Source: a virus
DNA: 64,000 bases
Reading direction: 5' to 3' (one strand)
Virus record (IMG/VR): IMGVR_UViG_3300028840_006907
Coordinates: 224,001-288,000 of that record
Positions within the stretch are counted from its first letter, which is position 1; each line of letters opens with the position of its first letter. Positions 3,040-34,881 of this stretch are shown here, in pieces. The translations under genes were made by a program, and so were the position numbers. The notes beneath the pieces are model-generated. The model made no database searches, had not been told where the DNA came from, and saw only the letters and a list, made by a program, of their open reading frames with translations.

Positions 3040-6000
3040 GTGTCGGAAGTTTATCAGGGTGATTATGCCCCTAATTTATATAATGAGGAAAAGCGTTATT
3101 ACTTATTTCAAGCACAACAGTTGACAAATCTAACTGATGCTGAACTTCGTGATTTACATAATATATCGAACACGTATGTCCGTCGTACAGTGCAAGCTCA
3201 AATTGGTGATTGTGCAATACAAGATGGTTATAAAATTGCTGAGAATACTTCGGATAAGTCTAACAATTTTCTTATAACAGGAGGAAGTGGTACTCTTGAT
3301 GATCCAGGGATGTATTATCTTAAAGGATATCGATTATTCCTTTTAGGTGATATAGCCTATAAAGATCAAACAGATACAGGTACTATTACCGATGACGGTT
3401 ATACTAAAACTATATTACCTGCTCTGACAACGCCTACTGGGGTCACCTCCACTTTAAATAGCCTTTCTTTAAGTAATCCCACTCTTATCTGTTGTGGTGA
3501 TACGAGTGCTATTGCTAACTCTTCTGATTGGGGTCGAAATTGGGTTGATAGAAATGCTATGACATCCCAAAATCTAAATGGTTCTTCTTTAGGAGACGCC
3601 TCAGTCGGTTATGCAGTTGGTAATGTGGGAGCTGTTCTTCGTACAACTGATAGTGGAAATAGTTGGATAAATATCCGAACAAGTTTACCAACTCTACCAA
3701 CAAATTATCAAAATGTTAATTTCTTTGATGCTTATTTTGTGAACTCTTCTATCGGATGGATCACGGGTCAAAGTGGTGCCATATTAAAAACAATAAATGA
3801 TGGGACTAGTTGGACTGTACAGGGATCTGGTGTCACTACTTCAGATTTAAGTGGTGTTCATGGGACTGGATTAACTGATGTGTGGGCTGTCGGTAGTAGT
3901 GGTATGGTGGTAAAAACGACTGATGGTACAACCTGGTCTCAACAAGCTAGTGGAACTCTTTTTAATTTATCAAGAGTACATGCTATTAATACATTGGTCG
4001 CTTATGCTGTTGGTAATAGCGGTACTATAATAAAAACAACGAATGGTGGTACATCTTGGTCTGCACTTACTTCTGATACTACAGAAAATCTTCGTGATGT
4101 TCATTTCACGGATTTAAATAATGGTTGGGCTGTTGGTGATAATGGTACGATTACCCGAACAGATGATGCAGGTTCAACCTGGGATTCTTCTACTATTGCC
4201 AGTGTCGATTTAAGAGCTGTTACTTTTTATGATACCACAGGATTTACTGCTGGTGGAAGTGGTGAGATTTACAGAACTCTTGATAATACAAATTGGGTGA
4301 AATATCGTACTGATTATGTTTACATTGATTTCCATCTAGCTGAGGTTTCAGGTGATGCCACCTCAGGTAGTGAATACATAGATACAAGTTTAGTGGATGC
4401 GACTGTAGGTTATCCAAGTGCCAATAGATTGAGGGTGGTCTCTGATGTAAAAGTGTCTGAAGGGTGGCCAGCTCCAGCCGATTACACCAATACTGATGCT
4501 ACCCTTCAGCATTATATCGCTCCTCTTGCGTCAATAGAGCGTTCGGTGGGTACAAGTGATATAACTTCAGCTAACATCACAGATTTAAGAACTGTTGTTC
4601 GTACTATTGGTGAGATTGATGCTGCCCTTAAAGACGGAAGTATTGGTACTTCTGCAATAGCTGATGGAGCTATTACCCCTGATAAACTTGATAGTACTGG
4701 CGATTATACAATGGGATCACTCAGTATCTTGGGAGATTCTTCTATTGCTGGTGATTTAACTATAGGCGGTATATTAGTTGTTAGTGATTATAGAACTAGC
4801 ACTATCATGGATAATCTTGTGGTACGGGGATCTGCTCAATTAGGTGATTCAACAGCTCCATATGAGGATAGTGTTAATATTTATGGTAATATTACTCAAG
4901 TATTAGATTCAACTAAAATCGCTTATGATATACAAACATCTTCAACAACTGATGCTTCTCCAATAATTAAAATTGTTTCTGATAGTACAGGTAGTGTATG
5001 GCATGTAGAAAGTAAATCTCAAACGACATCGAGTCTTTTTGATGCTACTACACAGAATATGGGGTATGATTTCCATTTAAATCATTTAGGATATGAAGGT
5101 GGCTTATTTAAATTAAGGGATGATGCAAGTAACCATACCATTACTATATCTAAGACAGCTCCAGGATTTAGAGGGTCTGTTTTAGATGTTACAAGTAATA
5201 GCAATGACCCAACAATAAATATCGTAAACAGAGCTTTATCTGATTCAACAAGTTTAAGTATTGACCAGACTCATGGGACCATGATTACTTTGAATACGTT
5301 GGGTGATGCTTCTGGTATCGATATTTATTCACAAGGCTCTGGAAGAGACCTACATATAGATCATTCAGGTACTTTAGGAATAGCTGTAGATATTACTAGT
5401 TCCAGTGCACAGGTTGCAATGAATCTTGTAAATCAGATGGGACCTGCTGTAGTAATAACTCAGAATGGTGATGATGAAGCTCTGTTGGTTTTAAATAAAG
5501 ATTCTACAACCTTAGGAAGAGCTTTAGAGATTAACCATAGAGGTAGTGATGTTGGATTAGGTGTTTATAATACTGGTACTGGAATGGGTCAGCTAATTTC
5601 ACATGTAGGTGATTCTACTCATCCTGCATTAGATATTTATGTAGCAGGGAATGAAAAAGGTCCAGCTCTTCGTATAAATAAGGCAAATGATGAAACTGGT
5701 GAAGGTATAAGAGTATGGAATCAAGGTTTTAGCGAATCCTTAAGATTAATTCAGGATAGAACCGATTCCTCAGCTACAGTACTTTTAATTGAAAGCCAGA
5801 GTATTGGTTATGATGTTAGCTCTAGTAATTGGAATATAGATAGCTCAGGTAATATTTATACCGCTGGAAGTATTACTTCTGATTCTACTGCTACTGTAAC
5901 AAGTTCTAAATTTGCTTTTGATAGTACTTATTATATGACTTCTACAGGGATGTATCTTGATAACAGTGGCTATGATTCCTCTAATCCTGCTGTAGCTGGT

Positions 6001-10275: not shown

Positions 10276-12027
10276 TTATGCCTTGTGAAATCGAAAACTA
10301 TTATTAAATAAATAACTAGGTTTTGACTCAACTGATCTTCCCATGTATGTTCTGGTTTTTGAGTAGCTTATATTTAAACATTTCTGAGCCCTTGTGCATG
10401 CTACGTAAAATAATCTCTCTTCCTCTTTTTTATCTACAGCAAAACTATGAGGCCATACTCCTTCTTCTACACCTACAACTAGGACTGTATTAAATTCAAG
10501 ACCTTTACTGGCATGAGCCGTTAATAACTTAACCCCATGTCCGGTATCTTCTTCCAGAAATGTACTTGCTAAAACCAGGTCCTCTATGGTTCTAAATTCT
10601 CTGATGATTTCTAAAAATGAAGTCAGCATTGTACGGTCACTATCTTTTTTAATAGTAGTTCTATAATCTGTTTTATATAAGATAGTCTCAACAGCCTCTG
10701 AAGGAGTCATGCCCTTTATTTCATTTAAGATATTTATAAGTCCTCTTATACGGGGCATTTCATAAGCCATAGTTTCTAGATAAGACCAGCCTTCTCGAAG
10801 TAAAATTTCTTTTTTCTTTGCTCCGAATCCACGAGGGGGTACATTTACGATTCGGTTTAAACTTTCTAAATCATCTCTATTCGTACTGGCTTTGAGAAAA
10901 CTCATTAAATCTTTGGGAACTCTACGCTTATAATAAGGAAGGGCACCAACAACTTTATATGGTATGTGTTTACTTGCAAAAGCTCTTTCAAAGAATAAGG
11001 ATCTTGCATTTACGCGAAACAGTATTGCGGTATTTTCGTAATCGTTGGCTCTTATAAGGGCATTGGATATTTTCTCTGCCTCGTCTTCCTGACTATTAAA
11101 TCCGGTGAAAGATATTGATCCTTGGAAAGGGTTTTTAGCAACCATCTGATTACCGTATTGAATGTATTGATTGGCATGTTTTATGATCTCTGGAGAACAT
11201 CTGTAGTTGAAACTTAAGTGACATACAGTCGGTTTATGTAATTCTATAAAATGTTTTATGTTCTCAGGATGGGCACCCCTAAATTGGTAAATGGACTGAT
11301 TAAAATCAGCCACTACAAACAATGTCTTTGAATTTTTTGTGTATAGTTTATTTATAATGTCATATTGAATTAAAGATGTATCTTGAAATTCGTCTACTAA
11401 TAGATGAGGCCATTTTTTTGAGTAAAAATCAGCGCAATCTTTATGTCCTAAACAGTCATTGGCATAAATGAGTAGGTCATCGAAATCACATGCATTATTT
11501 TTTAGAAGAATCTCTTGGTAAGTTTTATATACAAGTAAAAAATTTCCTTCATTCAGTTCTGATGTAAACTGCGAAAGTCTGAATGATTTCCTGACATTAT
11601 CGGACCCCATTGATTTGATATGGCTAATAGCCAAGACATATGTTTTGGGTTCTCCGGGCAATTCCCGAGATTTAATGATTGTTTTTACAATTGATAACTG
11701 ATCACCGTCATCATATATACTAAAATTAGGTTTTATTGGTAAATGCCGTGTAAAATTTCTGATTATCCCTACACATAAACTGTGAATTGTGCTGACTTGC
11801 ATTTTTCCAATAGAGTCACAATGTAACTTTAATCGCTCTTTCATTTCATTGGCTGCTTTATTCGTAAAAGTAATAGCACATATATTATCTGGAGAAATAC
11901 CTTGTTCCATAAGCCTTAAAATCTTGGCTATAAGACATCGGGTTTTTCCTGATCCTGCCGAGGCATTAACCATTGTAGGTGATGCAGCTTCAACGGCTCT
12001 GGTTTGTTCTGTATCTAATGATATCAT
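10276..12027 (-). CDS. superfamily 1 DNA helicase, UvrD/Rep/PcrA family
   Basis: Walker A AGSGKTRCL; Walker B LLVDEFQDTS; motif IV FNYRCSPEII; motif VI TAHASKGLEFNTVLVVG; 583 aa. Confidence 0.85.
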   Translation of the reverse strand: MISLDTEQTRAVEAASPTMVNASAGSGKTRCLIAKILRLMEQGISPDNICAITFTNKAANEMKERLKLHCDSIGKMQVSTIHSLCVGIIRNFTRHLPIKPNFSIYDDGDQLSIVKTIIKSRELPGEPKTYVLAISHIKSMGSDNVRKSFRLSQFTSELNEGNFLLVYKTYQEILLKNNACDFDDLLIYANDCLGHKDCADFYSKKWPHLLVDEFQDTSLIQYDIINKLYTKNSKTLFVVADFNQSIYQFRGAHPENIKHFIELHKPTVCHLSFNYRCSPEIIKHANQYIQYGNQMVAKNPFQGSISFTGFNSQEDEAEKISNALIRANDYENTAILFRVNARSLFFERAFASKHIPYKVVGALPYYKRRVPKDLMSFLKASTNRDDLESLNRIVNVPPRGFGAKKKEILLREGWSYLETMAYEMPRIRGLINILNEIKGMTPSEAVETILYKTDYRTTIKKDSDRTMLTSFLEIIREFRTIEDLVLASTFLEEDTGHGVKLLTAHASKGLEFNTVLVVGVEEGVWPHSFAVDKKEEERLFYVACTRAQKCLNISYSKTRTYMGRSVESKPSYLFNNSFRFHKA

Positions 12028-12338
12028 TAATTATAATTCCAAAATCTTGTTTTCATACTTATAACTGAAGCACCCGCTACAATGTTAACGAGTAATCCAT
12101 AATTATAAGTATGGTTAATGTTATGTTTCTTTTTTACATCGTAAAGTTTTTTTAATGTTAATACTATTTCAGCTACTTCTAATAATAATGGAACTTCTTT
12201 TATTTCCTCTGAAGACTTGACTACTGGTTTATATAAATCGCTAAAAATCTTTTTAAAATAAACTTCTACCTCTCCTTTATCCGTCTTGAAAAAAATTCGA
12301 TACCTCCCCTTACCATTCTTTTTTAGTACCTCCATCAT
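12027..12338 (-). CDS. hypothetical protein
   Basis: 103 aa ORF in minus-strand block; start overlaps helicase stop. Confidence 0.4.
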   Translation of the reverse strand: MMEVLKKNGKGRYRIFFKTDKGEVEVYFKKIFSDLYKPVVKSSEEIKEVPLLLEVAEIVLTLKKLYDVKKKHNINHTYNYGLLVNIVAGASVISMKTRFWNYN

Positions 12339-12416
12339 AAGTCACTGCTAGTTTGGCTTTAATTAGCATTTTACCTAAATCTTTTCCGTCAACAAAGAAA
12401 TAAGTCATGAATTTAG

Positions 12417-12638
12417 TCATGTTTTATTCTTATTTTTTGAATTGCTCTTTTCATCGATTATATATTTTTTAATAGTATATACCTTTATTATTCCGAGTTT
12501 TTTAAATATATAATCTTGAAATTCTTTTTCTAATTTATCGAAATCATAACTTACTAATTCTAAAGCCCATTTTACCCTGAAATCTTTTTCAGCTAATTGA
12601 ATCAATTTTATTTGAAATTCTGTTTGTGTTAATTCCAT
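12417..12638 (-). CDS. hypothetical protein
   Basis: 73 aa ORF. Confidence 0.3.
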   Translation of the reverse strand: MELTQTEFQIKLIQLAEKDFRVKWALELVSYDFDKLEKEFQDYIFKKLGIIKVYTIKKYIIDEKSNSKNKNKT

Positions 12639-12658
12639 AAATTTTAAGAAAAGTCCTT

Positions 12659-12934
12659 CTATATTTTAGTTAATGGCTCGTCGTATTTTTCAAGAGTTTC
12701 ATCTCTTTTAACCAATTTGCAGTTTACAAATTCAGGCATTCTCGGGTCTTTATTAAATGTATCCACTAATTCCTGAGCATCATCTTTAAATAGACAACAT
12801 GCTTCGTGTGGGTCTTTCACGAAATGTGTCCATGAGTCATTCTCTGAACTGCGAATTTTTTTCATAGCATAAAAAGTACCATTCGGGTGTTGGATTAAAT
12901 AATCCTGGCTAGTATCTGTGTAAAAATCGTTCAT
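12659..12934 (-). CDS. hypothetical protein
   Basis: 91 aa ORF; contains HPNG but no downstream Cys, so not a confident E2. Confidence 0.4.
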   Translation of the reverse strand: MNDFYTDTSQDYLIQHPNGTFYAMKKIRSSENDSWTHFVKDPHEACCLFKDDAQELVDTFNKDPRMPEFVNCKLVKRDETLEKYDEPLTKI

Positions 12935-13089
12935 AATATACCGCCTTTTGAATGAGTGTGAATAAGTTAATAGTGAGTCCTTTATAAATATTATACCAGT
13001 CTACCCTTGAAACTCTCCCAAAAAAATTTTAATAAAAAATGTGATGGTTTGTAATTCGTTGAGAAGTATAAAATTATAAAACAAAAAAA

Positions 13090-13428
13090 TTAGTCTAAAA
13101 ACTTCTCAATATTTTCTATTGAATTAATGATTTTACCATTTTCTTGTATGAAATAAAATCTTTTTCCACATTTTATACAACTTATTACAGCCATGTTGGG
13201 AACAACTTCTTTAAAATGAAATTGATTATTGATTTGATCTATTACTGATTGCATATTTGAGAAGATGGTATTTCTTTGATATAATGTGAAGACATATTTA
13301 CAGTGAGGGCAGATAATTCGATGAGGATCAACAATTTTTTCCTTATGTTTTTTTATAAGTTCTATGATAAAACTTATAATAATGTAAATACTGAGAAAAG
13401 TCATGGGAAAAATTAATAATTCTTTCAT
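13090..13428 (-). CDS. hypothetical membrane-anchored zinc-ribbon protein
   Basis: N-terminal hydrophobic segment; CPHC...CIKCG paired-Cys motifs. Confidence 0.45.
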   Translation of the reverse strand: MKELLIFPMTFLSIYIIISFIIELIKKHKEKIVDPHRIICPHCKYVFTLYQRNTIFSNMQSVIDQINNQFHFKEVVPNMAVISCIKCGKRFYFIQENGKIINSIENIEKFLD

Positions 13429-13429
13429 T

Positions 13430-13813
13430 CTAAAGATAATCCTCTATTCGTTTAGCCTTTTCATTCAGATATAATAGGACTTTTTCATCATCTTTGATTT
13501 TACCTTTATCATCGATATATGAAGTCATCTCAATAGATTTGATAGGTTTAACAGTCCCATGATTGATTTCAATTTTTCTATGTACTCCTTTTACTAACAA
13601 GTCAATTTCTTCTTTCTCATCTGAGTCCCAGTGGTACTCTGGGAATAAATAATTAATCTGATTCTTACCATAACCTTTAAATCGACTCAGGATGAAACTG
13701 TTATCAAATTTGTTAAATATGCCTAAAGTCGAATTTCTTGCCATTATAAGATACAGGCAATTGTGTATACATTTATTTAATGGGACATATGATTTAAATT
13801 TCTCTATGCTCAT
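13430..13813 (-). CDS. hypothetical protein
   Basis: 127 aa ORF immediately downstream of E1-like gene. Confidence 0.4.
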   Translation of the reverse strand: MSIEKFKSYVPLNKCIHNCLYLIMARNSTLGIFNKFDNSFILSRFKGYGKNQINYLFPEYHWDSDEKEEIDLLVKGVHRKIEINHGTVKPIKSIEMTSYIDDKGKIKDDEKVLLYLNEKAKRIEDYL

Positions 13814-13828
13814 TGAGTAATATATTTT

Positions 13829-14470
13829 TTATCTATCAAATTCTGAAATTTTCATATCTTTTAAAGTGATTATATAATTCTTTTTAACACCACTCTCAAT
13901 GAATTTGATTAATGACTCCGATGCTACTGCCACTGCCAGAAGTATAATATTCCTGGCCAATGGGTACTCGCATACATCAGGAGCTATCGTGTCTTTTGGG
14001 ACGGTATAAGATTCGTTCCATATTATTTCCGCGTAATCCTGAGACAGCCCGACATGTAAACAGCTCAAACCATTATCCTTACAATATTGATAAACTAATT
14101 TTCGGCTAATATTATTATCAAAAGAATCGATGATAATATTTGGTTTTTTCAAATATTTACTCACAGTAGTTTTATTAAGTTCTTTACTATTGGCATTCAA
14201 AACAGTTTTGGTTGAAGCATATGCTCTCATTTTCATAGTCGCTACTTTGTAGGTACCTTTTTCATTTTGGTTCCAGATCTGGGTACCATTATTGTGAGGT
14301 TCAATTCTGTCTTTATCGATAATTGTAATTTCTTTGAATCCCTGTCGAACTAAATTATCACAAAGATTTGACCCTATTGCTCCGACACCACAGAGTGTAA
14401 TTGGGGTTGTTGATAATTTACCAACTACTTCTTCAGATCGATACATTCTTTCATGTATTAATAAATCCAT
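13829..14470 (-). CDS. ThiF/MoeB/E1-like adenylyltransferase (ubiquitin-activating-like)
   Basis: Rossmann glycine loop LCGVGAIGSNL followed by IIDKDRIEPHNNGTQ (E1 DxDxVExSNLNRQ-like); 213 aa; adjacent to JAB protein. Confidence 0.65.
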   Translation of the reverse strand: MDLLIHERMYRSEEVVGKLSTTPITLCGVGAIGSNLCDNLVRQGFKEITIIDKDRIEPHNNGTQIWNQNEKGTYKVATMKMRAYASTKTVLNANSKELNKTTVSKYLKKPNIIIDSFDNNISRKLVYQYCKDNGLSCLHVGLSQDYAEIIWNESYTVPKDTIAPDVCEYPLARNIILLAVAVASESLIKFIESGVKKNYIITLKDMKISEFDR

Positions 14471-14474
14471 AATA

Positions 14475-14999
14475 TCATCCTATCCTAGCTATAATGCGAT
14501 CTTTTAACAAGACAAAGGGAATTTCAATACAACCTACAATCCGGTCTTTGTCTCTTTTATATAAATAAAATCTTTGTACTTCTGATTTGATTCCACATAA
14601 TAACGGTTTACCCAAAGCTTTGACCCAACCAGTCATAGTTTTATCATCTAAGGATGAAGGTTCCATTATATTACTTGGATGAGTATGATTAAAACCTACT
14701 ATTTTATTTCTGTCTCTGATTACTTTTTCCCAGTCAAAATCAACTGAACCAGGACCACCAGTGGATTCATAGATTAGTCTACCATAAATCCATTTGCAGT
14801 ATTTTTTACCATATATGATCCAACAATTTTCGTTAATTGTTTGTACTACTTCAATAGCTTCTATTGTTAATTTATTTTTATTGTAAATACCTTTATATGT
14901 TCGACCACATTCTGGGCATGGCATTCTTTGTGTTTCATTTTCTGTAATCCAGCATATATATTTTCCGCACTTACATGTAAATTCACTGCTTTCGGGCAT
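14475..14999 (-). CDS. JAB/MPN+ (JAMM) metalloprotease with N-terminal zinc ribbon
   Basis: Exact JAMM signature HTHPSNIMEPSSLD (HxHx7Sx2D); N-terminal CKCG...CPECG. Confidence 0.7.
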   Translation of the reverse strand: MPESSEFTCKCGKYICWITENETQRMPCPECGRTYKGIYNKNKLTIEAIEVVQTINENCWIIYGKKYCKWIYGRLIYESTGGPGSVDFDWEKVIRDRNKIVGFNHTHPSNIMEPSSLDDKTMTGWVKALGKPLLCGIKSEVQRFYLYKRDKDRIVGCIEIPFVLLKDRIIARIG

Positions 15000-15025
15000 A
15001 GGGATATATCCTTATTTTAGATTTT

Positions 15026-15925
15026 CTAATACAACGTTCTACTTATTTGATGAGTGCGTTGACCCTCTTTTATTACAGAAATTAATGCTTTTAAATCATA
15101 GTCTTTATCACCAACATGACCTGTTTCATGGTCGGTTAAACAGATGCCTGCAGTAATAACGTGGTGACTTTGATCTTTAGTAACAATAGTATTAAATTTC
15201 TCTCCATCGATTTCATATGTTACATAAATATGATCCGATTTTTCATCACTGCTCAGGTATTTACCTCCGGCAAATTCTATATCACGTTGAATCTTTGTTT
15301 TTTTCTTTTCTTCAAGTGCTCGTTCACGTTCTTCTTTGATTTTTAAATCGATTTTGTATTTTATGTTAAAAGCAATTTTCTCCTCCAATGTCAGACCAGA
15401 GAATTTTAATTTAGATGGGTCTCTGAATTCTTTCAGGGACTCATTAAGATAATCTGTAATCATCGGATCGGCTGACATATCCATTGAATCAAACCAGATA
15501 TTAGCTCCGTCAAATCGGCATAGACATTTAGAAAATGTTGTAACCATATCATCGAAAAGAAGAACTGGGTATAATTCTGATACTTTTAATCCCAGATGAT
15601 TACTCTTTATCGGGATCCCAAGATAAAAATCTTTCTTTTTATGTACTAAAACCATTCTTATCTTTGGTAAATATTTAAGATAAGATTGAATCTCATCTAT
15701 TTCCGCTAAATCTATTGCTTCAGCCCGTTTATTATCAAGTGCTTTGAATTTGTACCATCCCGGTTCTGTTTTCGGGATGTTTAAGTAATGAATAATTCCT
15801 TGAATACGGATAATGATTCGGTCATTATAATACACAGGAGAAATGATAGTCTTTTCAGTCATCATTTCTTCCTGTTTCCCTATTTTATCAATAAGGTTTA
15901 AAATATTATCTTTTCTTACGGTCAA
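15026..15925 (-). CDS. hypothetical protein
   Basis: 299 aa ORF between JAB and Ro60-like genes; start overlaps Ro60-like stop. Confidence 0.5.
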   Translation of the reverse strand: MTVRKDNILNLIDKIGKQEEMMTEKTIISPVYYNDRIIIRIQGIIHYLNIPKTEPGWYKFKALDNKRAEAIDLAEIDEIQSYLKYLPKIRMVLVHKKKDFYLGIPIKSNHLGLKVSELYPVLLFDDMVTTFSKCLCRFDGANIWFDSMDMSADPMITDYLNESLKEFRDPSKLKFSGLTLEEKIAFNIKYKIDLKIKEERERALEEKKKTKIQRDIEFAGGKYLSSDEKSDHIYVTYEIDGEKFNTIVTKDQSHHVITAGICLTDHETGHVGDKDYDLKALISVIKEGQRTHQISRTLY

Positions 15926-17462
15926 AAGATTTCCTCACGGGTAAAGGTGTATCCATGATCTCATATAGAAGATCGAGTTTTGATTTTCTGGATAGCAATG
16001 GAATTAATCCAGGCAATCCATAGTAATCGCTACCTTCAGGTTCATAGTAATCGAAAGGTATTCTAGCTTGTTTTAAATACATGCTGAATTCTTTACGACT
16101 CCATGAACTTGGAATGTAAATAATAGTAATAGTAGGAGTCACATTAAATTTTTTAACATAATTATCCCATATCTCAACGAAAAATGGATTATTATTTTCA
16201 CCTTCATCAGTGACCACTATTATCTGTTCTACATAATAGTTTTTTCTAATAAGGTAATCTAATGCTATACCTATGGAAGTCCCACCATTACTTTTTACAG
16301 GTCTGAAAGCCCTTTCCCAGGCAGACATATTCGGTTCATTAGCTGTGATCTCTCTGGCCATTGTATCAAAAGTAATAGCATAGAGAGGAGCTTCTGTAGC
16401 ACCTGAAATAAGAGCCGCAACATTTTTTCCGACTTCGATGGCTTGAGTCATAGAACCTGATTTATCGATAAAGACTGCAGTAGGTACTTTTATAACACCT
16501 TTCTTTTTAATTTGCTGATCTGCAATTTCATCGAGGATCTTTTGAGATTCCTCATTTTTGATCCGACCTGTTTTCTTTGCTTCTTTGGATTTTAAAGCTG
16601 ATACATTTTTAGCTTTTTTAGCTTTTTCCAATTTAGCCGTAATCAATGTTTTTGTATCCTCATTGTCCATGGCACCACGTTCTTCTAGGGAAGCATAGTT
16701 ATTAATAACTTCCTGTGGAGACATAGCATTGATTAGAGCAATCAGAATTGTAGGAGTGATTTGATCAACCAAACCTACAGCCACCGTATAAGGTACTTTA
16801 TGTTCTATAATCAGCTTTGCCACTTCAGTCGGATTATCAGCTTGTGCTATTTTTTCGAAAACATTTAATTTACTGTCCGTAGGACGTTCATTTCCGAAAA
16901 GAATCTTCTGAGCACGTTCACTAGGTGCTATACGAAGAGTAGCATATAATCCTTTAAGATCTTTTGGACTTTTTAGGGCAATAGCATCAAAAAGATCGTT
17001 GTTGGTTTCAATATATTGAAGAAATTTCTCAACATCCCTTTTAAAGGCAGTAGGAATATTTTTGTAAAGACCTACATTTTTTTCTTCAATTTTTACTTCA
17101 TCGATCATTTTTTTCTTCATTTTTATTTTTTTGCCCGTTTTATTTCTGATCTTTATTTTTTTACCTTTAATAAAACCGACCACACGTCTTTTAAGATATA
17201 CAGGTATTTCCCTGAAGAGGGCTAGCCCAACTTCACGGTTGTCAAGAAATTCATCAACAATAAGTGAACCGATGAATACTTCTTTATGATCCCGAATATC
17301 TCCATTCTTGTAGTACCAGCTTCCAAGGTGGGCATAAAACAGCGGATCTGCTTTTTGTAATTCAAGATGGGTATTTTTTAATTTATCTAGGTCCCGGTGA
17401 GGGCAACTCAGAAATGAGTTAAGCATGTTAACTCTGATATCATTTTCGTTAGCTTGGTTCAT
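15906..17462 (-). CDS. rsr: Ro60/Rsr-like protein (TROVE module plus C-terminal vWA domain with MIDAS motif)
   Basis: MIDAS motif AVFIDKSGSM in C-terminal third; IVVTDEGEN resembles Ro60 IVFTDNETF; N-terminal GSWYY motif resembles Ro60 GGTYY; 518 aa; structured tRNA-like RNAs encoded divergently. Confidence 0.7.
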   Translation of the reverse strand: MNQANENDIRVNMLNSFLSCPHRDLDKLKNTHLELQKADPLFYAHLGSWYYKNGDIRDHKEVFIGSLIVDEFLDNREVGLALFREIPVYLKRRVVGFIKGKKIKIRNKTGKKIKMKKKMIDEVKIEEKNVGLYKNIPTAFKRDVEKFLQYIETNNDLFDAIALKSPKDLKGLYATLRIAPSERAQKILFGNERPTDSKLNVFEKIAQADNPTEVAKLIIEHKVPYTVAVGLVDQITPTILIALINAMSPQEVINNYASLEERGAMDNEDTKTLITAKLEKAKKAKNVSALKSKEAKKTGRIKNEESQKILDEIADQQIKKKGVIKVPTAVFIDKSGSMTQAIEVGKNVAALISGATEAPLYAITFDTMAREITANEPNMSAWERAFRPVKSNGGTSIGIALDYLIRKNYYVEQIIVVTDEGENNNPFFVEIWDNYVKKFNVTPTITIIYIPSSWSRKEFSMYLKQARIPFDYYEPEGSDYYGLPGLIPLLSRKSKLDLLYEIMDTPLPVRKSFDRKKR

Positions 17463-17483: not shown

Positions 17484-17813
17484 TCAGGTTTCAATTTTTC
17501 CGAAAGTAGCATTTGGTCTAACTGTAATGTTACCATTTTTATGGTGTTCAACAACTAATTCAGCAAATTCTGATGCTGGTCTATCATAATGATCTACTAA
17601 AGCCAATTTAATTTGTTCACCAGTTATATTATCCGATGTGATCTCGGTTCCTGGTTCAATCCCGAGTTGTTCCCATCTGTCTTCTGGGAAAAGATCTTTG
17701 AGATTAATATCTTCAGTTTGACCATCATACATTATATGGACTTCACTCATATGAGCCTCCTTGTAATAAGTTAAAAAAAGAGTCCCGTATATTATACGAC
17801 ACGAGATTAACAT
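17484..17813 (-). CDS. hypothetical small acidic protein; true start probably at internal Met (MSEVH) preceded by AAGGAGG
   Basis: ORF track 109 aa; strong SD upstream of internal ATG near 17750. Confidence 0.4.
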   Translation of the reverse strand: MLISCRIIYGTLFLTYYKEAHMSEVHIMYDGQTEDINLKDLFPEDRWEQLGIEPGTEITSDNITGEQIKLALVDHYDRPASEFAELVVEHHKNGNITVRPNATFGKIET

Positions 17814-17867
17814 TTCATTAAGTAAAAAATTGGGTAGAATATAAATTCTTGTGTGTCATCATGGTAA

Positions 17868-17896
17868 ATAACTTTTTTAAAAAAATTATTGACACA
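17868..17896 (+). promoter_or_regulatory. sigma70-like promoter (TTGACA, 17 nt spacer, TATATT) upstream of the tRNA and structured-RNA array
   Basis: Direct reading of consensus -35 and near-consensus -10 with 17 nt spacer, about 60 nt upstream of tRNA. Confidence 0.6.
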
Positions 17897-17955
17897 CTTA
17901 AAATTTATGGTTATATTATTGACAGTTCTGCACTCTAACTTTTGATGCTTACATA

Positions 17956-18032
17956 GAGAAAATAGCTCAGTTGGTCAGAGCGCGAGATTTAGGTTCTTGA
18001 AGTCTTCGGTTCAATTCCGAATTTTCTTACCA
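17956..18032 (+). tRNA. canonical tRNA, class I; hand-folded anticodon UAG (decodes CUA) with encoded CCA
   Basis: Hand fold: acceptor GAGAAAA/TTTTCTT, D-arm GCTC-AGTTGGTCA-GAGC, anticodon stem CGAGA/TCTTG with loop TTTAGGT, T-arm TTCGG-TTCAATT-CCGAA, discriminator A then CCA. Confidence 0.7.
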
Positions 18033-18081
18033 TAAAATTAGCACCTTCAACTTGTGCAGAACTACTTAAACCAAGAAATAA

Positions 18082-18199
18082 AAGTCAGACATTCTAATTA
18101 TTAGGGCGTACATGGCGTTAAAACCATGCTTCCTGCAGAAATCAGGAAGCAATCTCTGGGCCAAGGCTCAGGGGCGCACTGATGACTTATGTCTGACTT
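18082..18199 (+). ncRNA. structured RNA element (Y RNA-like, non-tRNA-like) closed by a 9-11 bp terminal helix
   Basis: Terminal inverted repeat AAGTCAGACAT/ATGTCTGACTT; internal hairpins CATGG/CCATG and GCTTCCTG/CAGGAAGC; shares TCTAA..GGGC.TACA motif with downstream tRNA-like units. Confidence 0.4.
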
Positions 18200-18250
18200 A
18201 ATATAGATTGTAAAGTGTTGTAAAATAAATTTGATCTTTGAAAATTATAG

Positions 18251-18436
18251 GATAATGCCTTCTAACCTGTTGGGCTTACAAATTTTACTGGTTCGACTCC
18301 AGGTTCCGCCTCTCGGTCCTTTTGTAAAGATTGTAAAGGATCAGGAGGCGGAACAAGCCGGGTGGTCTGGCGATTGAATGCAAATCAATTTATTTGAAAT
18401 TAACGCTCTTTTAACTTGGGCATTTATCCTTTTTTA
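18251..18436 (+). ncRNA. tRNA-like structured RNA unit 1 (Y RNA/YrlA-like or permuted tRNA): terminal helix, T-arm, closed acceptor-like helix, D-arm, anticodon-like hairpin (loop ATGCAAA), U-tract
   Basis: T-arm CTGG-TTCGACT-CCAG; 10 bp helix GTTCCGCCTC/GAGGCGGAAC; D-arm GCC-GGGTGGTCT-GGC; hairpin ATTGA/TCAAT; flanks GGATAATGCC/GGCATTTATCC pair; TTTTTT follows. Confidence 0.6.
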
Positions 18437-18478
18437 TAGTAATTTATAATTTTATATAAAGTGATCTTTGAAAATATG

Positions 18479-18668
18479 AGGTAAGTGCCTCCTAACATAA
18501 CGGGCTTACAAATTAATAGGGTTCAACTCCCTGTTCCCCCGCCTAAGTCTTTGTCATATAATGATTAAGATTTGGGCGGGGGAACGAGCTGGGTGGTTCA
18601 GCAATCAACGTTTAATTGATGAAAAACATTTTTACGCTCTTTTAACTTAGGCACTTACTCTTTTTATT
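18479..18668 (+). ncRNA. tRNA-like structured RNA unit 2 (Y RNA/YrlA-like or permuted tRNA); anticodon-like loop CGTTTAA
   Basis: T-arm AGGG-TTCAACT-CCCT; helix GTTCCCCCGCC/GGCGGGGGAAC; D-arm GCTG-GGTGGTT-CAGC; hairpin ATCAA/TTGAT; flanks GAGGTAAGTGCC/GGCACTTACTC pair; TTTTT follows. Confidence 0.6.
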
Positions 18669-18684
18669 AAATTGAAATTACAAG

Positions 18685-28200: not shown

Positions 28201-31200
28201 ATTATTTAGATTCAACCGATGTGACTCTTAATATAGGGCAAGAATTTCTTATTCGAGTTGAGAATAAATCGGGTGGAGCAATAGTAGATGGTCAAGCAGT
28301 CTACGTCACTGGTTCTAATGAAGATGTCCCTGAAGTAAATCTAGCAAAAGCAGATTCTTCAAATACTTCTGAGGTTTTAGGTATTGCTACTCAGGTAATT
28401 GAAAATGATACGCAAGGTTATGTTACTTGTGCTGGAAAAATACGTAACTTAAATACTAGTGATTGGACTTCAGGAGATTTACTTTATTTATCTGATAAAA
28501 CTGCTGGTGCATTGACCAATGTTCAACCTTCAGGTAATAGTAATATATTTAGTGTTCATATAGGTCTTGTTATAAGATCACATGCTAGCGATGGTGTTAT
28601 TTTTGCTCACCGTCATATTCCTCATTACCGTCCAGAACAGTTAAGAGATACCACTGCATCTTCTTTAACTGATGGTCAGGTTTTATCTTATGAAAGTAGT
28701 ACAGATAGATGGATAAATAGCACTTTACCTTCAATTACACAATCTATAGATAGAAATGAACCTGGTGGTTTTGTCAACAGAACAGACAGTACAGTAGGTT
28801 TTACTGAATCTACTCGTACTTTGCAAGTTACAACCGCGAGTTCTTATGATATCTATCAGGCTGGTACTAAATATACAATTAATGCAACCGATTCTACTCA
28901 AATTCCTGATACAAATGGTTTGCACTATATTTATTTCGATACCACTAATATGACTGTACAAACGAATCCAGCACTTCAGAATATTCTAGATATCATATAT
29001 GAAAAATCTCTTATTGCTGCGATATATTGGAACTCTTCCGATGATAGAGCTATTATAACCAATGATGAACGTCATGGTATTGTGATGGATGGTAGGACCC
29101 ATTCTTATCTTCATACTACTAGAGGAACTCAATATACATCACCAGGCTTAACTCCTGGAGATTTTGATATTGATGGAGCTGGAAGTAATGACAGTGCCAG
29201 TCAAATGAGTATTTCTGATGGGCAAATACAAGATGAAGATATTTGGTTTGAAATTCAAGATGGTAATCCTCAAATATTAGATCCTATAGCTGAAATTCCT
29301 GTTATTTATAAAGATGGTGCAGGAGCTGAATGGAAAATAAAATATTGGACAGCTTCATGGGCATCTGCAACCTCTTATCCTACTGGTACTATAATAAGAG
29401 AGAGTAATTCTTATTTTAGATCTAGTGGAGGAACTTCAGGTGGTGCTCTTCCTGCTTTTTCTGCAAATCGTGAACCAGGTGATACTATTGTTGATAATAC
29501 AATTACGTGGACAAATGTTGGTTCTCCATTGTCTCCTGTGATTAATTTTGTGGGAGGTAATTATAGATTAGCATATAATCAGTTTACTGGTGGGGCATGG
29601 CAACAAACCGAAGTAACAAATGGTAATTATGTTCTTACTCATATATTTGCTACGACTGATATTTTTCATCCTATTATGGCTATTCAAGGTGAGAATGAGT
29701 ATGGTAATGTTGCTGCAGCTAGAGCAGGAGCTTTAACAGAACTAGATAGTATTGTATTGTCTGGATTGGATTTTCCTGAATCAATATTTCTTGCTACAGT
29801 TATTTTTCAGACTAATAATACTTATACTAATCAAGTAAAAGCTCGAACTATCTCAACTGATACAGGTGATGATTTTATAGATTGGAGATTTTCTCAAATC
29901 AATGCAGCCTCAACAGGTGATCAAGGTCCTCAAGGAGAAACTGGTGTTCAAGGGGTACAGGGTGAAACCGGAGTACAGGGTGAAACCGGAGTAGCAGGAG
30001 CAACTGGTGTTCAAGGAATACAAGGCCAGACTGGAATCCAGGGAGAAACTGGAATTCAAGGAGCCACAGGTGTTGCCGGAGCAACTGGTGTTCAAGGGAT
30101 CCAAGGTCAGACTGGAATCCAAGGAGAAACTGGAATTCAAGGAACTACGGGAGTAGCAGGAGCAACTGGTGTCCAAGGAATCCAAGGAGAAACCGGAATT
30201 CAAGGAGAAACCGGAATTCAAGGAGCAACTGGTGTTCAAGGTATTCAAGGAACAACCGGAGTTCAAGGAATTCAGGGAACCACAGGAGTTCAGGGTGAAA
30301 CCGGAGTCCAAGGAATTCAAGGAACCACAGGAATTCAAGGAATTCAAGGAACCACAGGAGTTCAGGGTGAAACCGGAGTCCAAGGAATTCAAGGAACCAC
30401 AGGAATTCAGGGTGAAACCGGAATTCAAGGAATTCAAGGAACCACAGGAGTTCAGGGAACCACAGGAGTTCAAGGAATACAAGGAACCACAGGAGTTCAG
30501 GGTGAAACCGGAGTCCAAGGAATTCAAGGAACCACAGGAGTTCAGGGAGAAACTGGAGTTCAGGGGATCCAGGGTCAGACTGGAATTCAGGGAGAAACTG
30601 GAGTAGCCGGAGCAACTGGAGTACAGGGCCAAACAGGAGTTCAAGGAATCCAAGGTCAAACTGGTATACAGGGAGAAACCGGAGTAGCCGGAGCAACCGG
30701 AGTACAGGGTCAAACAGGAGTTCAAGGAATCCAAGGACAAACTGGTGTTCAAGGAGCAACCGGAGTAGCCGGAGCTACTGGAGTTCAGGGAGAAACAGGA
30801 ATTCAAGGAATCCAAGGACAAACTGGTATACAGGGAGAAACCGGGGTAGCCGGAGCAACCGGAGTACAGGGCCAAACAGGAGTTCAAGGAATTCAAGGAA
30901 ATACTGGTGTTCAAGGAGCAACCGGAGTTCAAGGAACTCAAGGAGATACTGGAGTTCAAGGAACAACTGGTGTTCAAGGTGAAACCGGTTTAGAAGCAGC
31001 TTATCATTTCTTTGCGGATCAGTTGGATAGTCCTAATAATGCTGATTGGGCTGTTAATGCTCTTGCTCCAGCTTCTGCTGATACTACAAATAATGCTCTT
31101 GTTGTACGTCGGTTTGATGATACGGATGAAGAAGGTGTAGGATTTATGGTAAATATTCCAACAGGAAGGACAAATATAGTATTTGGATTTAAGAGTAGGG

Positions 31201-31487
31201 CTGAAACAGCTCCTGGATCGGCGCATAATGTAAAACCAAAGGTATATGTCAGGGAAATACCTGATAATACTACTGTGGAAAGTTGGTCTTCTGGTTATGA
31301 TTTAAATGCTTTAAGTATGCCAACAAATACCTATTTTCAATATGATTCTCAATCTGTAGCTTTTACCGCTCTTGATATTACAGGTGGGAGATTGGCTCAA
31401 TTTGAAGTAACAAGAGATCATACGGGTGTAACTCCTGATTTAACTGGTGACTGGGACTTGCTAGAGCTTAATGTTTCATTTACCTAG
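22251..31487 (+). CDS. giant collagen-like repeat protein (3078 aa) with interspersed duplicated globular domains and a C-terminal non-collagenous domain; probable virion fibre
   Basis: RBS AAGGAG upstream; five long G-X-Y tracts; duplicated domain A (FAGFNYKAKTD... and WAGFSYNAKTD...) and domain B (PNWIDFVPQASAPSH... and VNYIDYEPQDTVPSH...). Confidence 0.8.
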   Translation: MAKTKRKWIELDWYNPNALRAQDIPYDQTESVKDAIDRAASGVLGPTGTTGSTGSTGSTGPTGPTGATGATGAGIQGETGVAGVQGATGTGGGGDTGVQGETGLPGATGIQGTTGIQGTTGIQGETGIQGHTGTVGTTGVQGETGSQGTTGIQGETGVKGETGIQGQTGIAGGAGFPGATGVQGETGVQGTTGVQGETGVQGTTGVAGATGVQGTTGVQGTTGIQGETGVQGDTGVGATGIQGTTGIQGQTGVQGITGAYGGPPGETGVKGETGVQGATGIQGLQGLQGTKGETGTQGIQGQTGVQGETGVQGQTGTGAPGATGVQGQTGIQGTTGIGLGSTGVAGATGIQGTTGVQGRTGVQGFTGAAGLGETGIQGATGVQGATGIQGTTGAGIQGATGISGDTGVQGATGIRGTTGAGIQGATGVQGIQGQTGAQGETGVQGETGIEGSQFAGFNYKAKTDNQSDTDPGIGNLKWSAVAQVTSSELYVDDADVNSTDLSNFYLTLKAADSLRIVRMEDPSQYQIFNITNVTDRTGWFRLSVTPVVSGGSTFSLNDNIILIFSISGPRGQTGVKGETGIQGTTGVAGATGVQGQTGIQGQTGIQGIQGQTGIQGQTGIQGQTGIQGQTGVGAQGATGVAGQTGVQGETGIQGQTGAGIQGTTGVQGVQGLTGVQGQTGAGIQGETGVQGTQGLTGIQGQTGAGIQGETGVQGNTGAFGGPPGETGVQGETGAQGLTGVQGQTGAGIQGATGIQGVTGVQGQTGAGIQGVTGIQGQTGIQGQTGVAGQTGVQGIQGQTGVAGQTGVQGIQGQTGIAGQTGVQGIQGQTGIQGQTGAGIQGTTGVAGATGVQGIQGQTGAGIQGTTGVQGTTGVQGETGTGIQGETGTQGIQGQTGIQGQTGIQGNTGVKGETGVQGFPGPQGTKGDTGAQGIQGETGTQGIQGQTGVAGETGVQGQTGTQGIQGQTGVAGATGAGIQGQTGVQGIQGQTGIQGQTGVQGETGIEGSLWAGFSYNAKTDDQSDTDPGTGNLKWSTVAQVNAGELYVDDTDQYSIDLSNFYLTLKAGDSLRIIRQEDPSQYQIYNITNVTDRTGWFRLSVTYVTSGGSTFSLNDNIILVFVKAGIQGQTGAQGIQGQTGVQGIQGQTGVQGATGTQGIQGPQGQIGLQGTTGVQGETGVQGTQGQTGIQGTTGAGIQGQTGVQGIQGQTGIQGQTGAGIQGATGIAGIDGQTGIQGETGIQGQTGAGIQGATGIAGIDGQTGIQGETGIQGQTGAGIQGETGIQGIQGLTGIQGTTGAGIQGETGVQGTQGQTGVQGQTGAGIQGETGVQGTQGQTGIQGQTGAGIQGVTGIQGIQGQTGIQGQTGAGIQGETGVQGETGIQGQTGAGIQGTTGVQGVQGLTGVQGQTGAGIQGETGVQGTQGLTGIQGQTGAGIQGETGVQGETGIQGQTGAGIQGVTGIQGQTGVQGTTGIQGQTGVGIQGVTGVQGIQGQTGIQGQTGIQGETGVSGATGIQGIQGQTGIQGQTGVQGETGVQGSTGVLGDPNWIDFVPQASAPSHQEARLFYDSTDHSLSYYNEESDVTLNLGRELYIRVYNATVSTITNGQVVYVTGVAAGYPTIDLADGSDLTKTNNIGVATHNIEASTFGYITLFGLVRDINTNAFSAGDEVWLSESTPGGYQSFAGTYAVKIGYVVVSDTLNGSIMVAMGDTEATIAGLNDVNLTSISDGQYLQWDSDSTKWVNVSESPQGDTGIQGATGVQGIQGTTGVQGATGVQGIQGTTGIQGQTGVQGETGIQGTTGVQGETGTAGIDGQTGVQGETGIAGIDGQTGVQGTTGVQGIQGTTGIQGETGTAGIDGQTGVQGETGTAGIDGQTGVQGTTGVQGTTGIQGTTGIQGTTGIQGETGTAGIDGQTGVQGTTGIQGETGVQGTTGIQGETGVQGTTGIQGETGVFGIVNYIDYEPQDTVPSHLEGRTFYDSTDHSLSYYLDSTDVTLNIGQEFLIRVENKSGGAIVDGQAVYVTGSNEDVPEVNLAKADSSNTSEVLGIATQVIENDTQGYVTCAGKIRNLNTSDWTSGDLLYLSDKTAGALTNVQPSGNSNIFSVHIGLVIRSHASDGVIFAHRHIPHYRPEQLRDTTASSLTDGQVLSYESSTDRWINSTLPSITQSIDRNEPGGFVNRTDSTVGFTESTRTLQVTTASSYDIYQAGTKYTINATDSTQIPDTNGLHYIYFDTTNMTVQTNPALQNILDIIYEKSLIAAIYWNSSDDRAIITNDERHGIVMDGRTHSYLHTTRGTQYTSPGLTPGDFDIDGAGSNDSASQMSISDGQIQDEDIWFEIQDGNPQILDPIAEIPVIYKDGAGAEWKIKYWTASWASATSYPTGTIIRESNSYFRSSGGTSGGALPAFSANREPGDTIVDNTITWTNVGSPLSPVINFVGGNYRLAYNQFTGGAWQQTEVTNGNYVLTHIFATTDIFHPIMAIQGENEYGNVAAARAGALTELDSIVLSGLDFPESIFLATVIFQTNNTYTNQVKARTISTDTGDDFIDWRFSQINAASTGDQGPQGETGVQGVQGETGVQGETGVAGATGVQGIQGQTGIQGETGIQGATGVAGATGVQGIQGQTGIQGETGIQGTTGVAGATGVQGIQGETGIQGETGIQGATGVQGIQGTTGVQGIQGTTGVQGETGVQGIQGTTGIQGIQGTTGVQGETGVQGIQGTTGIQGETGIQGIQGTTGVQGTTGVQGIQGTTGVQGETGVQGIQGTTGVQGETGVQGIQGQTGIQGETGVAGATGVQGQTGVQGIQGQTGIQGETGVAGATGVQGQTGVQGIQGQTGVQGATGVAGATGVQGETGIQGIQGQTGIQGETGVAGATGVQGQTGVQGIQGNTGVQGATGVQGTQGDTGVQGTTGVQGETGLEAAYHFFADQLDSPNNADWAVNALAPASADTTNNALVVRRFDDTDEEGVGFMVNIPTGRTNIVFGFKSRAETAPGSAHNVKPKVYVREIPDNTTVESWSSGYDLNALSMPTNTYFQYDSQSVAFTALDITGGRLAQFEVTRDHTGVTPDLTGDWDLLELNVSFT
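22380..23590 (+). repeat. collagen-like G-X-Y triplet-repeat tract 1 of the 3078-aa gene
   Basis: Direct reading of GxTGxQG codon periodicity. Confidence 0.9.
23950..25260 (+). repeat. collagen-like G-X-Y triplet-repeat tract 2
   Basis: Direct reading. Confidence 0.9.
25610..26870 (+). repeat. collagen-like G-X-Y triplet-repeat tract 3
   Basis: Direct reading; near-identical 60-nt blocks repeated. Confidence 0.9.
27490..28100 (+). repeat. collagen-like G-X-Y triplet-repeat tract 4 (GTAGIDGQTG subtype)
   Basis: Direct reading. Confidence 0.9.
29920..30980 (+). repeat. collagen-like G-X-Y triplet-repeat tract 5
   Basis: Direct reading. Confidence 0.9.
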
Positions 31488-34878: not shown

Positions 34879-34881
34879 TAA

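Follow-up and report, generated by a model that had tools for sequence, protein, structure and literature searches.

Ro60 proteins bind Y RNAs, and the YrlA type of Y RNA, encoded beside Ro60 in bacteria and phages, holds a tRNA-like domain inside it, as described in the relevant parts of PMC4201824 and PMC12135203. Such RNAs are already known from the neighbourhood of phage Ro60 genes. Where PMC4201824 deals with gene order, most published YrlA genes lie on the same strand as Ro60. YrlA's tRNA-like domain is floated as a competitive inhibitor of an anticodon nuclease in a passage of PMC7790460, and a passage of PMC11482910 suggests that annotated tRNAs adjoining a phage Ro60-like counter-defence gene may be Y RNAs. 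Here we describe a related locus of a huge phage, found in a stretch of 64,000 nucleotides (positions 224,001 to 288,000 of the IMG/VR record IMGVR_UViG_3300028840_006907; hereafter the window, numbered from its first letter). The element under study, at 17956-18032 on the plus strand, is called as a tRNA-Leu with anticodon UAG. The element is a genuine class-I tRNA fold. We consider it probable that it serves as tRNA module, with an exchangeable anticodon arm, in the first member of a tandem series of five Y-RNA-like units (17924-18857), which are divergent from a phage Ro60 gene. It is probably not a stand-alone or ordinary tRNA-Leu gene, and its Leu label is probably only nominal.

The element, GAGAAAAUAGCUCAGUUGGUCAGAGCGCGAGAUUUAGGUUCUUGAAGUCUUCGGUUCAAUUCCGAAUUUUCUUACCA, is the sole tRNA called by ARAGORN in the 64-kb window, and Rfam RF00005 matches 17956-18029 with 65.9 bits (gathering score 29, E = 4e-12). 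Its cloverleaf has stems of 7, 4, 5 and 5 bp. The acceptor stem is AU-rich (GAGAAAA/UUUUCUU) and starts with a G1.U72 pair; U8, A9 and G26 are present; the D arm reads GCUC-AGUUGGUCA-GAGC and the T arm UUCGG-UUCAAUU-CCGAA. The anticodon arm, CGAGA-UUUAGGU-UCUUG, provides U33, the anticodon U34 A35 G36 and G37, the variable loop is AAGUC (5 nt), and the 3′ end consists of the discriminator A73 and an encoded CCA. All the features of a tRNA in general are therefore present, namely the RF00005 cloverleaf with its conserved U8, A14, G18G19, G53-T54-Psi55-C56, A58 and C61, a 7-nt anticodon loop with U33 and a score above threshold. Together with the extensive covariation in relatives described below, the bit score places the element far beyond a chance fold. 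The initial annotation had proposed a canonical tRNA with anticodon UAG, a 5-nt variable loop, a G1.U72 pair and an encoded CCA; both programs call the tRNA, the remaining features were confirmed position by position, and the ARAGORN check that it had suggested returns a tRNA with anticodon tag and isotype Leu.

The assignment to Leu is less straightforward. Bacterial tRNA-Leu has an NAG or NAA anticodon, and the element has UAG at positions 34-36. This anticodon decodes CUA and is none of the suppressor anticodons (CUA, UUA, UCA), so it reads no stop codon, and the earlier view that it reads a Leu codon is upheld. A73 is likewise as in bacterial tRNA-Leu; it is also found in the orthologous Arg(ACG) tRNA of the related locus L011 and is therefore not specifically coupled to a Leu anticodon. 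What the element lacks is the class II form, a long variable arm and a length of about 85-90 nt, as its variable loop has 5 nt and its total length is 77 nt. The earlier premise that bacterial tRNA-Leu is class II is right for ordinary tRNAs: E. coli leuW has 85 nt, and an ordinary phage tRNA-Leu(GAG) in the distant relative L082 has 86 nt. Similarity searches with the element itself were of little help. An exact-pattern scan of IMG/VR with the anticodon left free gave zero matches, megablast of the region against GenBank phages matched nothing, and distant blastn against annotated phage tRNAs gave weak matches of mixed isotypes (Pro, Lys, Val and Met), never Leu.

The start codon of a 518-aa protein gene (15906-17462, minus strand) lies 494 nt from the element on the divergent strand. 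An AlphaFold2 model of this protein, based on 41 homologues (pLDDT 79.8, pTM 0.65), has an all-alpha repeat region followed by an alpha/beta domain. When this model was compared with the PDB by Foldseek, the top 12 matches were all Ro60/Rsr (E 1.5e-11 to 1.5e-8), including Xenopus and human Ro60, the Ro60 of Thermus phage phiLo and Rsr of D. radiodurans. The top matches 9nfa, 9kop, 1yvp, 9l5y, 2i91 and 2nvo align over the full length (about 530-577 aligned columns, TM 0.52-0.63), and proteins with only a von Willebrand factor A (VWA) domain rank after them, with E values of at least 1e-4. The predicted structure thus shows a Ro60 fold, a TROVE-type ring of HEAT repeats followed by a C-terminal VWA domain, and we take the protein to be a Ro60/Rsr orthologue. 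At the sequence level, Pfam gave only a weak VWA_CoxE match (E = 0.043), a profile search of PDB sequences gave nothing and PHROG was uninformative, so that the relationship is visible only at the level of the fold. The protein has more than 1000 homologues of 55-79% identity on contigs of up to 512 kb; a scan of IMG/VR with the protein as single query found no relative, and an alignment-based scan was needed. We propose this Ro60 as the protein partner of the five units. The distance from its start codon to the element is well within the range of about 4 kb or less expected of a Y RNA.

The element lies inside a gene-free gap of 1.2 kb (17814-19015) separating two divergent gene blocks. A predicted sigma-70-like promoter (17889-17917, plus strand; TTGACA-17 nt-TATATT, 11 of 12 consensus matches) precedes the array, and similar TTGACA...TATATT boxes are found at the equivalent relative position in L003, L004, L011, L024, L017 and L022. 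A hairpin followed by a T run, which resembles an intrinsic terminator (18899-18940, plus strand), closes the array. As judged from these signals, the five units would run from one promoter (17889) to one terminator (18940). In the first unit, U1, the element is enclosed by an outer stem of 10 bp, whose 5′ strand (AGUUCUGCAC, 17924-17933) pairs with its 3′ strand (GUGCAGAACU, 18054-18063) in both the minimum free energy and the centroid fold, with support from covariation. Between outer stem and tRNA module, the 5′ internal loop and linker (17934-17955) has UCUAAC (17934-17939), UGCU (17946-17949) and UACAUA with an invariant UACA. The 3′ linker and internal loop (18033-18053) has UAAAAUU, AGCA (18040-18043) and CAACUU (18048-18053), the last with the family consensus RACUYG, in which ACU is invariant.

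A motif scan found exactly five such scaffold units in the noncoding array of the window, all on the plus strand. U2 (18084-18197), read from the sequence and the scaffold-motif scan, has the scaffold GUCAGACAU/AUGUCUGAC, UCUAAU, GGGCGUACAU ... GCGCAC-UGAUGACUU around a 63-nt module that is not tRNA-like. This module consists of two hairpins, and U2 may be a YrlB-like partner. The remaining units each combine the scaffold with a permuted, YrlA-like tRNA mimic: U3 (18250-18429; fold z = -4.3), with homologous units in relatives, U4 (18478-18660), recognized by the motif scan and in relatives, and U5 (18682-18857; fold z = -6.2), also seen in relatives and with the anticodon-like loop AUUGAAC. 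In U3 the V-loop entry comes first, followed by the T arm and a long capped acceptor hairpin, then by the D arm and last by a 5-bp stem whose 7-nt loop is AUGCAAA. Each of the units U3-U5 is about 180 nt long and shares the T arm GGUUCRAnUCC, a GC-rich capped "acceptor" hairpin and the D arm GCC...UGGU...GGC; they can be described as YrlA-like with an extra anticodon-like arm (5-bp stem, 7-nt loop). Their V loop starts with GGGCUUACAA, matching "YUAY" of YrlA. Neither ARAGORN nor Rfam detects U3-U5. In sum, the long stem with paired ends and a conserved internal loop that characterizes Y RNAs is found here, and a tRNA-like effector domain is present as a complete tRNA in U1 and as permuted mimics in U3-U5.

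We then compared about 100 loci around homologues of the Ro60 gene (designated by L numbers). Nearly all of them have 1-3 ARAGORN "tRNAs" upstream of Ro60 and arrays of 2-7 scaffold units. About 65 distinct tRNA-bearing units share a common layout in which YCYAAY and GC.UACA are conserved, and their best flanking helix has a mean of 11.2 Watson-Crick pairs, compared with 6.2 +/- 1.2 for shuffled flanks. For an alignment of 27 units (A3) covering the outer stem, the UGCU/AGCA helix and the cloverleaf, slid partners and 500 shuffles served as controls. The structure is paired in 90.2% of the alignment cells, compared with 35-43% with slid partners; its covariation score is 0.72, compared with 0.12-0.19 for slid partners, and was reached by none of the 500 shuffles. 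Double compensatory changes occur in all 8 aligned pairs of the outer stem. The inner UGCU/AGCA helix is 92.6% paired, and the helices of the cloverleaf are 94-100% paired with many compensatory changes; for the anticodon stem the value is 98.5%, with double changes in 5 of 5 pairs. A second inner helix (UUGA/UCAA) was dropped, since it is just 54% paired in the alignment. The ordinary tRNAs that these phages encode in clusters (Gly, Asn, Asp, Glu, Thr, Gln and Cys) served as a control: they have no scaffold, their acceptor stems are richer in GC and their anticodons are standard.

The same linkage of scaffolded tRNA and Ro60 is kept in the roughly 100 loci and in a public 595-kb phage genome (LR756511), which has an equal arrangement including a 75-nt class-I "tRNA-Ser(CGA)" in the scaffold. 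In this genome (L130 = LR756511.1 281735-291240) the Ro60 type is 45% identical, and a scaffolded "tRNA-Ser(CGA)" and "tRNA-Thr(UGU)" lie upstream of it. Some array units in relatives have no acceptor stem of their own, and others are permuted in the D loop. This third topology, a capped-acceptor cloverleaf in the same scaffold, was found in L078, L040, L058, L095 and L094 (modules of 100-114 nt), where the D loop is the point of interruption: ...UACAUGG-AUAGAGC-[AC arm]-[T arm]-[capped acceptor]-UAGCUCAGU..., where AC stands for anticodon. Variable anticodon-like arms are also borne by capped permuted modules, whose 3′ end, as encoded, is not free.

The closest relatives suggest that the body of the element and its anticodon arm have different histories. 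The module is orthologous to the tRNAs of L003, L004 and L011, with an identical T arm, a near-identical D arm and conserved flanks. These orthologues have NCG-type anticodons (UCG in L004, ACG in L011) apart from L003, whose loop has 6 nt, and more distant syntenic units have UCU and UAC. In L003, the closest relative (4924-4998), the 6-nt anticodon loop is UUCGGU and cloverleaf and scaffold are otherwise intact; this loop could belong to a variant that does not decode, or else reflect an assembly difference of one base within a T run. The arm of the window differs from those of the body orthologues at about 7 of 17 positions and is nearer to that of L052, a UAG arm carried by an unrelated body. 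A simple C35-to-A mutation of an Arg(UCG) tRNA was downgraded, since the whole arm differs and arm replacement fits better. The arm also resembles that of E. coli leuW, tRNA-Leu(UAG), with which it shares an identical 7-nt loop (UUUAGGU) and 4 of 5 stem pairs. The idea that the arm was copied verbatim from a cellular tRNA-Leu was discarded: its exact 17-mer is found 28 times in species-representative genomes, never inside a tRNA.

Across the clade, class-I bodies of about 75 nt bear nearly any triplet. Leu anticodons (UAG, CAA, UAA and AAG) occur on them 9-10 times, the Ser anticodon UGA and the stop-reading UCA are also found, and there are many A34 anticodons hardly used by bacteria (AUU, AAU, AUC, AAC and ACA). 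L094 (AUU), L054 (UCC), L047 (UAA) and L031 (UCU) have acceptor, D and T arms in common and differ in the anticodon arm. Among 24 close pairs with bodies no more than 15% different, divergence is 58% in the anticodon, 15.6% at loop positions 32, 33, 37 and 38, and 8.9% in the body. The clearest case is L016 and L017: in 5,891 bp of otherwise identical sequence they differ by 7 changes, each of them inside the 19-nt anticodon arm (tRNA positions 26-44), with UCU in one and AUC in the other and a compensatory change of the 29-41 pair; none of the 225 fourfold sites in their Ro60 genes differ. The arm lies at 3456-3474 of L016, and the two contigs are Ga0307379_10015910 and Ga0307380_10016331. 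This difference implies either a population-level polymorphism or cassette exchange at that site alone. The L017 arm is found verbatim on a different body in L046. The changes are not adenine-specific and include the compensatory stem pair; no reverse transcriptase is among the called genes of the loci, though no search aimed at diversity-generating retroelements was made. The two assemblies carrying the window, L001 and L002, are identical at the tRNA and hence uninformative on arm change. Taken together, the comparison shows a chassis, made up of the scaffold and the acceptor, D and T arms, that is conserved clade-wide and an anticodon arm that is exchanged like a cassette. The puzzling combination of UAG with a short-variable-loop body is then a product of arm turnover on a universal class-I chassis.

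The exchanged arms follow the rules of anticodon loops. Among 50 distinct loops, family-wide, 46 have Y32, 40 have U33, 47 have R37 and 44 have A38. G37 follows G36 in 12 of 13 loops, compared with 6 of 37 in loops with another nucleotide at position 36 (p = 1.7e-6). The arms thus look like, or work as, genuine anticodon stem-loops. There are exceptions: the loop has 6 or 8 nt in about 13% of units, U33 is missing in about 20% and CCA in about 35%. Some triplets are used more than others. A34 anticodons (AUU, AAU, AUC, AAC, ACA, AAG and ACG) account for 12 of the 50 distinct loops, exceeding G34 (5), and G35 is nearly absent (3 of 50); Ala, Pro, His, Tyr, Phe, Trp and Met anticodons were not seen among these loops.

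The Ro60 neighbour, the covarying scaffold, the permuted mimics, the conserved chassis and the rule-obeying arm together argue that the element is the tRNA module of a Y-type RNA. By analogy with Y RNAs, Ro60 would bind the scaffold stem, and the tRNA module would be an effector domain that engages a tRNA-recognizing partner. The anticodon arm would then be the specificity element, under diversifying pressure. Most likely, the module would not decode CUA routinely but would, in tethered form, imitate or compete with a particular host tRNA; its target could, for example, be an anticodon nuclease or another tRNA-targeting defence. More tentatively, one might envisage a programmable system of tRNA mimics, in which Ro60 holds arrays of Y-type RNAs with universal native or permuted chassis, cassette arms choose the host tRNA that is imitated, and the ribonucleoprotein works as a decoy or inhibitor or as a guide for Ro60-linked repair or decay. 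This possibility is the less probable part of our proposal. If it were true, the "tRNA-Leu(UAG)" of the window would be the version tuned to the host tRNA-Leu(UAG).

Several observations weigh against a Y-RNA function. Binding of the scaffold by Ro60 is something we infer only from adjacency and architecture. The published Ro60-binding motif (GNCGAA(N)G / CGAA) does not occur in the scaffold, which has YCYAAY/RACUYG instead, and Rfam families other than tRNA have zero matches to the region even at E <= 10. Published YrlA genes nearly always share the strand of Ro60, and the array of the window is divergent; the divergent arrangement is also seen in relatives whose Ro60 is at least 63% identical to that of the window, and more distant ones have the same strand. 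The element is more tRNA-like than any described Y RNA, with its 7-bp acceptor, single-stranded linkers on both sides, A73, U33 and G37, and CCA is encoded in about 65% of family members. With these tRNA-like features, a chargeable tRNA could be set free by RNase P and 3′ trimming. The preserved loop rules and the U34-rich anticodons are equally expected of a decoder, and the collection of units by ARAGORN biases the sample towards tRNA-like loops. Finally, the Ro60 synonymous sites are saturated for most close pairs, so that the 58% divergence of the anticodon by itself shows only an unconstrained triplet. We have therefore abandoned "anticodon faster than neutral" as a general claim; evidence for it comes mainly from L016/L017 and, weakly, from L067/L068.

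The alternative that survives best, and that we regard as unlikely, is a working class-I tRNA-Leu(UAG) for which the scaffold is a precursor or processing structure, possibly chaperoned by Ro60. RNase P and 3′ trimming would release the tRNA, host leucyl-tRNA synthetase (LeuRS) would charge it via A73 and the tertiary core, and it would read CUA, or all CUN codons via U34; arm swapping would re-target a universal chassis to the codon or host tRNA deficit of each lineage. The full set of canonical features at 65.9 bits, with A73, CCA and G37 beside G36, is what this alternative predicts, as are the decoding rules kept by the loops, including G37 with G36, and the resemblance of the window arm to an authentic tRNA-Leu(UAG) arm. 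The abundance of U34 and A34 also fits the A/U-ending codon bias of AT-rich phages. E. coli LeuRS reportedly reads neither the anticodon nor the long arm, which would make the short variable loop less of an obstacle. In addition, YrlA of M. smegmatis is cut by RNase P and gains CCA, according to the account in PMC4201824.

The codons of the window bear on this alternative in both directions. CUA accounts for 93 of 1316 Leu codons (4.7 per 1000 codons) and CUN for 43% of Leu codons. In homologues, CTA codons of the window align with Leu and otherwise with Ile, Met and Val, like the other five Leu codons, and never with Arg; the pooled Leu frequency at aligned Leu codons is 0.57-0.70, and at individual CTA codons Leu is found in 40 of 40 sequences (L259) or 39 of 40 (L490). 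A Leu-charged tRNA would accordingly be harmless and useful at these positions, and one inserting another residue at CUA would do harm. CUA itself is a minor codon, and a role in CUA supply is not supported. Of the two options left by the initial annotation, supply of a rare codon has thus lost ground, and a tRNA mimic is favoured by the scaffold, Ro60 and arm swapping.

Further arguments against decoding come from the family as a whole. One chassis and discriminator bears anticodons with incompatible identity rules, such as G73 with Asn, Gly and Leu anticodons. The Ser anticodon UGA is found on class-I bodies, and bacterial seryl-tRNA synthetase requires the long variable arm. Loops of 6 or 8 nt and units without U33 or CCA occur at the frequencies given above, acceptor-less and capped permuted modules with variable arms share the same scaffold, and the ordinary tRNAs of these phages look quite different. 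The capped permuted modules, the acceptor-less units, the 6-nt loops and Ser on class-I bodies argue against routine decoding as the common function of the family.

A decaying or neutral relic, that is, an Arg-type phage tRNA with a mutated anticodon, the diversity of relatives being drift, is highly improbable. Saturation of synonymous sites between most relatives means that the 58% anticodon difference could be neutral, and some relatives have 6-nt loops or no U33. Against drift, abundant compensatory changes maintain the cloverleaf and scaffold, the anticodon stem included, Y32, U33, R37, A38 and the coupling of G36 with G37 are kept, L016 and L017 differ by a clean replacement of the 19-nt arm with its compensatory 29-41 pair in 5.9 kb of otherwise identical sequence, and the element is conserved beside Ro60 down to about 40% Ro60 identity with the window. 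Scarcely credible is a mis-charging or recoding tRNA with a body that is Arg-type by descent, inserting Arg or another non-Leu residue at CUA: the nearest orthologous bodies do bear Arg anticodons (UCG and ACG) and the best BLAST matches are never Leu, but the residues aligned to CTA codons rule out reassignment of CUA and largely refute this alternative, position 35 of the element is A where arginyl-tRNA synthetase requires C35, and all open reading frames (ORFs) of the window are intact under the standard code (code 11).

Other features of the locus and the phage are as follows. A small conserved ORF lies between Ro60 and the RNA array (17484-17813, minus strand); it encodes 109 aa here and 85-88 aa in relatives, is syntenic in L001-L010 and has no Pfam or PHROG match. 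A conserved cluster (12027-15925, minus strand) with syntenic genes in L003-L010 lies downstream of Ro60, comprising a 299-aa protein without matches, a JAB-domain protein (14475-14999), a ThiF/E1-like protein (13829-14470) and small ORFs, followed by a UvrD-type helicase (10276-12027). In L003 and L004 the same cluster has an RtcB RNA ligase, in the manner of bacterial rsr-yrl-rtcBA operons; the RtcB (779 aa) and the helicase (821 aa, with an intein Pfam match) of L004 look intein-bearing. No genes of tRNA metabolism or RNA repair were found elsewhere in the window. Two large glycosyltransferase/methyltransferase fusion proteins are encoded at 19016-21643 and 61866-63947 (both plus strand), the first of which is always the far-side neighbour of the RNA array in relatives.

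The window belongs to a huge phage: it encodes terminase, portal, prohead protease and helicase, and it also has giant ORFs, of 2337 and 3078 aa. Its sequence is also found on a 389-kb JGI contig and a 469-kb ENA contig, and its closest relatives on deposit are "uncultured phage" genomes without annotation, 485 and 595 kb in size. The 469-kb ENA assembly (L002) diverges from the window only at about 25990-27350, inside the 3078-aa ORF (22251-31487), with many mismatches and a length difference of about 87 nt, which suggests a variable or repetitive segment of the giant ORF. Four consecutive paralogous genes at 31499-38959 (plus strand), each with a Laminin_G_3 (concanavalin-like lectin) domain, probably encode receptor-binding or fibre proteins.

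The reading of the element as a Y-RNA module has consequences for annotation. tRNA finders label such elements as tRNA-Leu, -Ser, -Arg, -SeC and the like; beside Ro60 in this clade of huge phages and in LR756511 they are probably Y-RNA modules, and it would mislead to base tRNA counts or codon-supply arguments on such calls, or to take from them apparent suppressor or odd-isotype tRNAs. What the tRNA-like domain of bacterial Y RNAs does has long been an open question, and at this locus the mimicry reaches a complete tRNA. That the anticodon arm is the fast-changing, rule-obeying part points to a partner that recognizes this arm, and replacement of a 19-nt arm in 5.9 kb of otherwise identical sequence is an unusual pattern for an RNA gene. 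LR756511 makes the system open to study from a deposited genome.

Among known systems, the YrlA-type Y RNAs, as described in the parts of Chen et al. 2014 (PMC4201824) on their structure and, for Yrl1/Yrl2 of Thermus phage phiLo, in those of PMC12135203, are closest to the locus. They too lie within about 0.5-2.5 kb of Ro60, often in tandem and in one precursor; their 5′ and 3′ ends likewise form a long stem broken by a conserved internal loop, and their effector mimics tRNA, U3-U5 having the YrlA order of V loop (YUAY), T arm, capped acceptor and D arm. In contrast to YrlA as described there, U1 has a complete tRNA of native topology, with its own 7-bp acceptor, discriminator, CCA and 7-nt anticodon loop and a score of 66 bits; YrlA has no anticodon arm, the Ro60 stem taking its place. 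The internal-loop motifs also differ (YCYAAY/RACUYG in the window, GNCGAA in YrlA), and the array of the window is on the divergent strand and has no Rfam Y-RNA match. In Yrn1 of Deinococcus radiodurans, as presented in PMC4201824, the scaffold stem runs into a series of D-, "anticodon"- and T-like elements in tRNA order, as in the window, and the acceptor-less units of L029, L092 and L046 look just like it. Unlike the module of the window, Yrn1 as drawn there has an "anticodon" loop of 6 nt and an incomplete D arm, and a V region, a separate acceptor and CCA are missing from it. Three features appear to be new with respect to the literature searched: a complete native tRNA as the module of a Y RNA, three module topologies (native, V-loop-permuted and D-loop-permuted) in one scaffold, and the cassette-like hypervariability of a rule-abiding anticodon arm, which that literature does not describe for Y RNAs.

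The Ro60-like gp130 of Escherichia phage Bas63 lies directly beside annotated tRNA genes, similar to the window, and counters the host defence system ppl, according to the passage on this gene in the PhageMaP preprint (PMC11482910). The idea that some of these tRNAs are Y RNAs takes up one sentence of speculation in that passage, which holds no RNA analysis, scaffold, covariation or arm turnover, and tblastn detects no similarity between the Ro60 of Bas63 and that of the window. E. coli leuW shares with the element the anticodon UAG in the loop UUUAGGU, 4 of 5 anticodon-stem pairs, A73 and CCA, but it is a class II tRNA of 85 nt whose variable arm is long, whose D arm differs and whose acceptor is rich in GC, and it is without a scaffold. 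Phage tRNAs that evade anticodon nucleases or stand in for host tRNAs cleaved by them, such as T5 tRNA-Lys against PARIS (van den Berg et al. 2023, as cited in PMC11482910), are likewise tRNA-shaped with loops driven by defence. As portrayed in that citation, they are free, chargeable isoacceptors with isotype-appropriate bodies, whereas in the family of the element one chassis takes arms of any kind and goes together with Ro60 scaffolds and permuted mimics.

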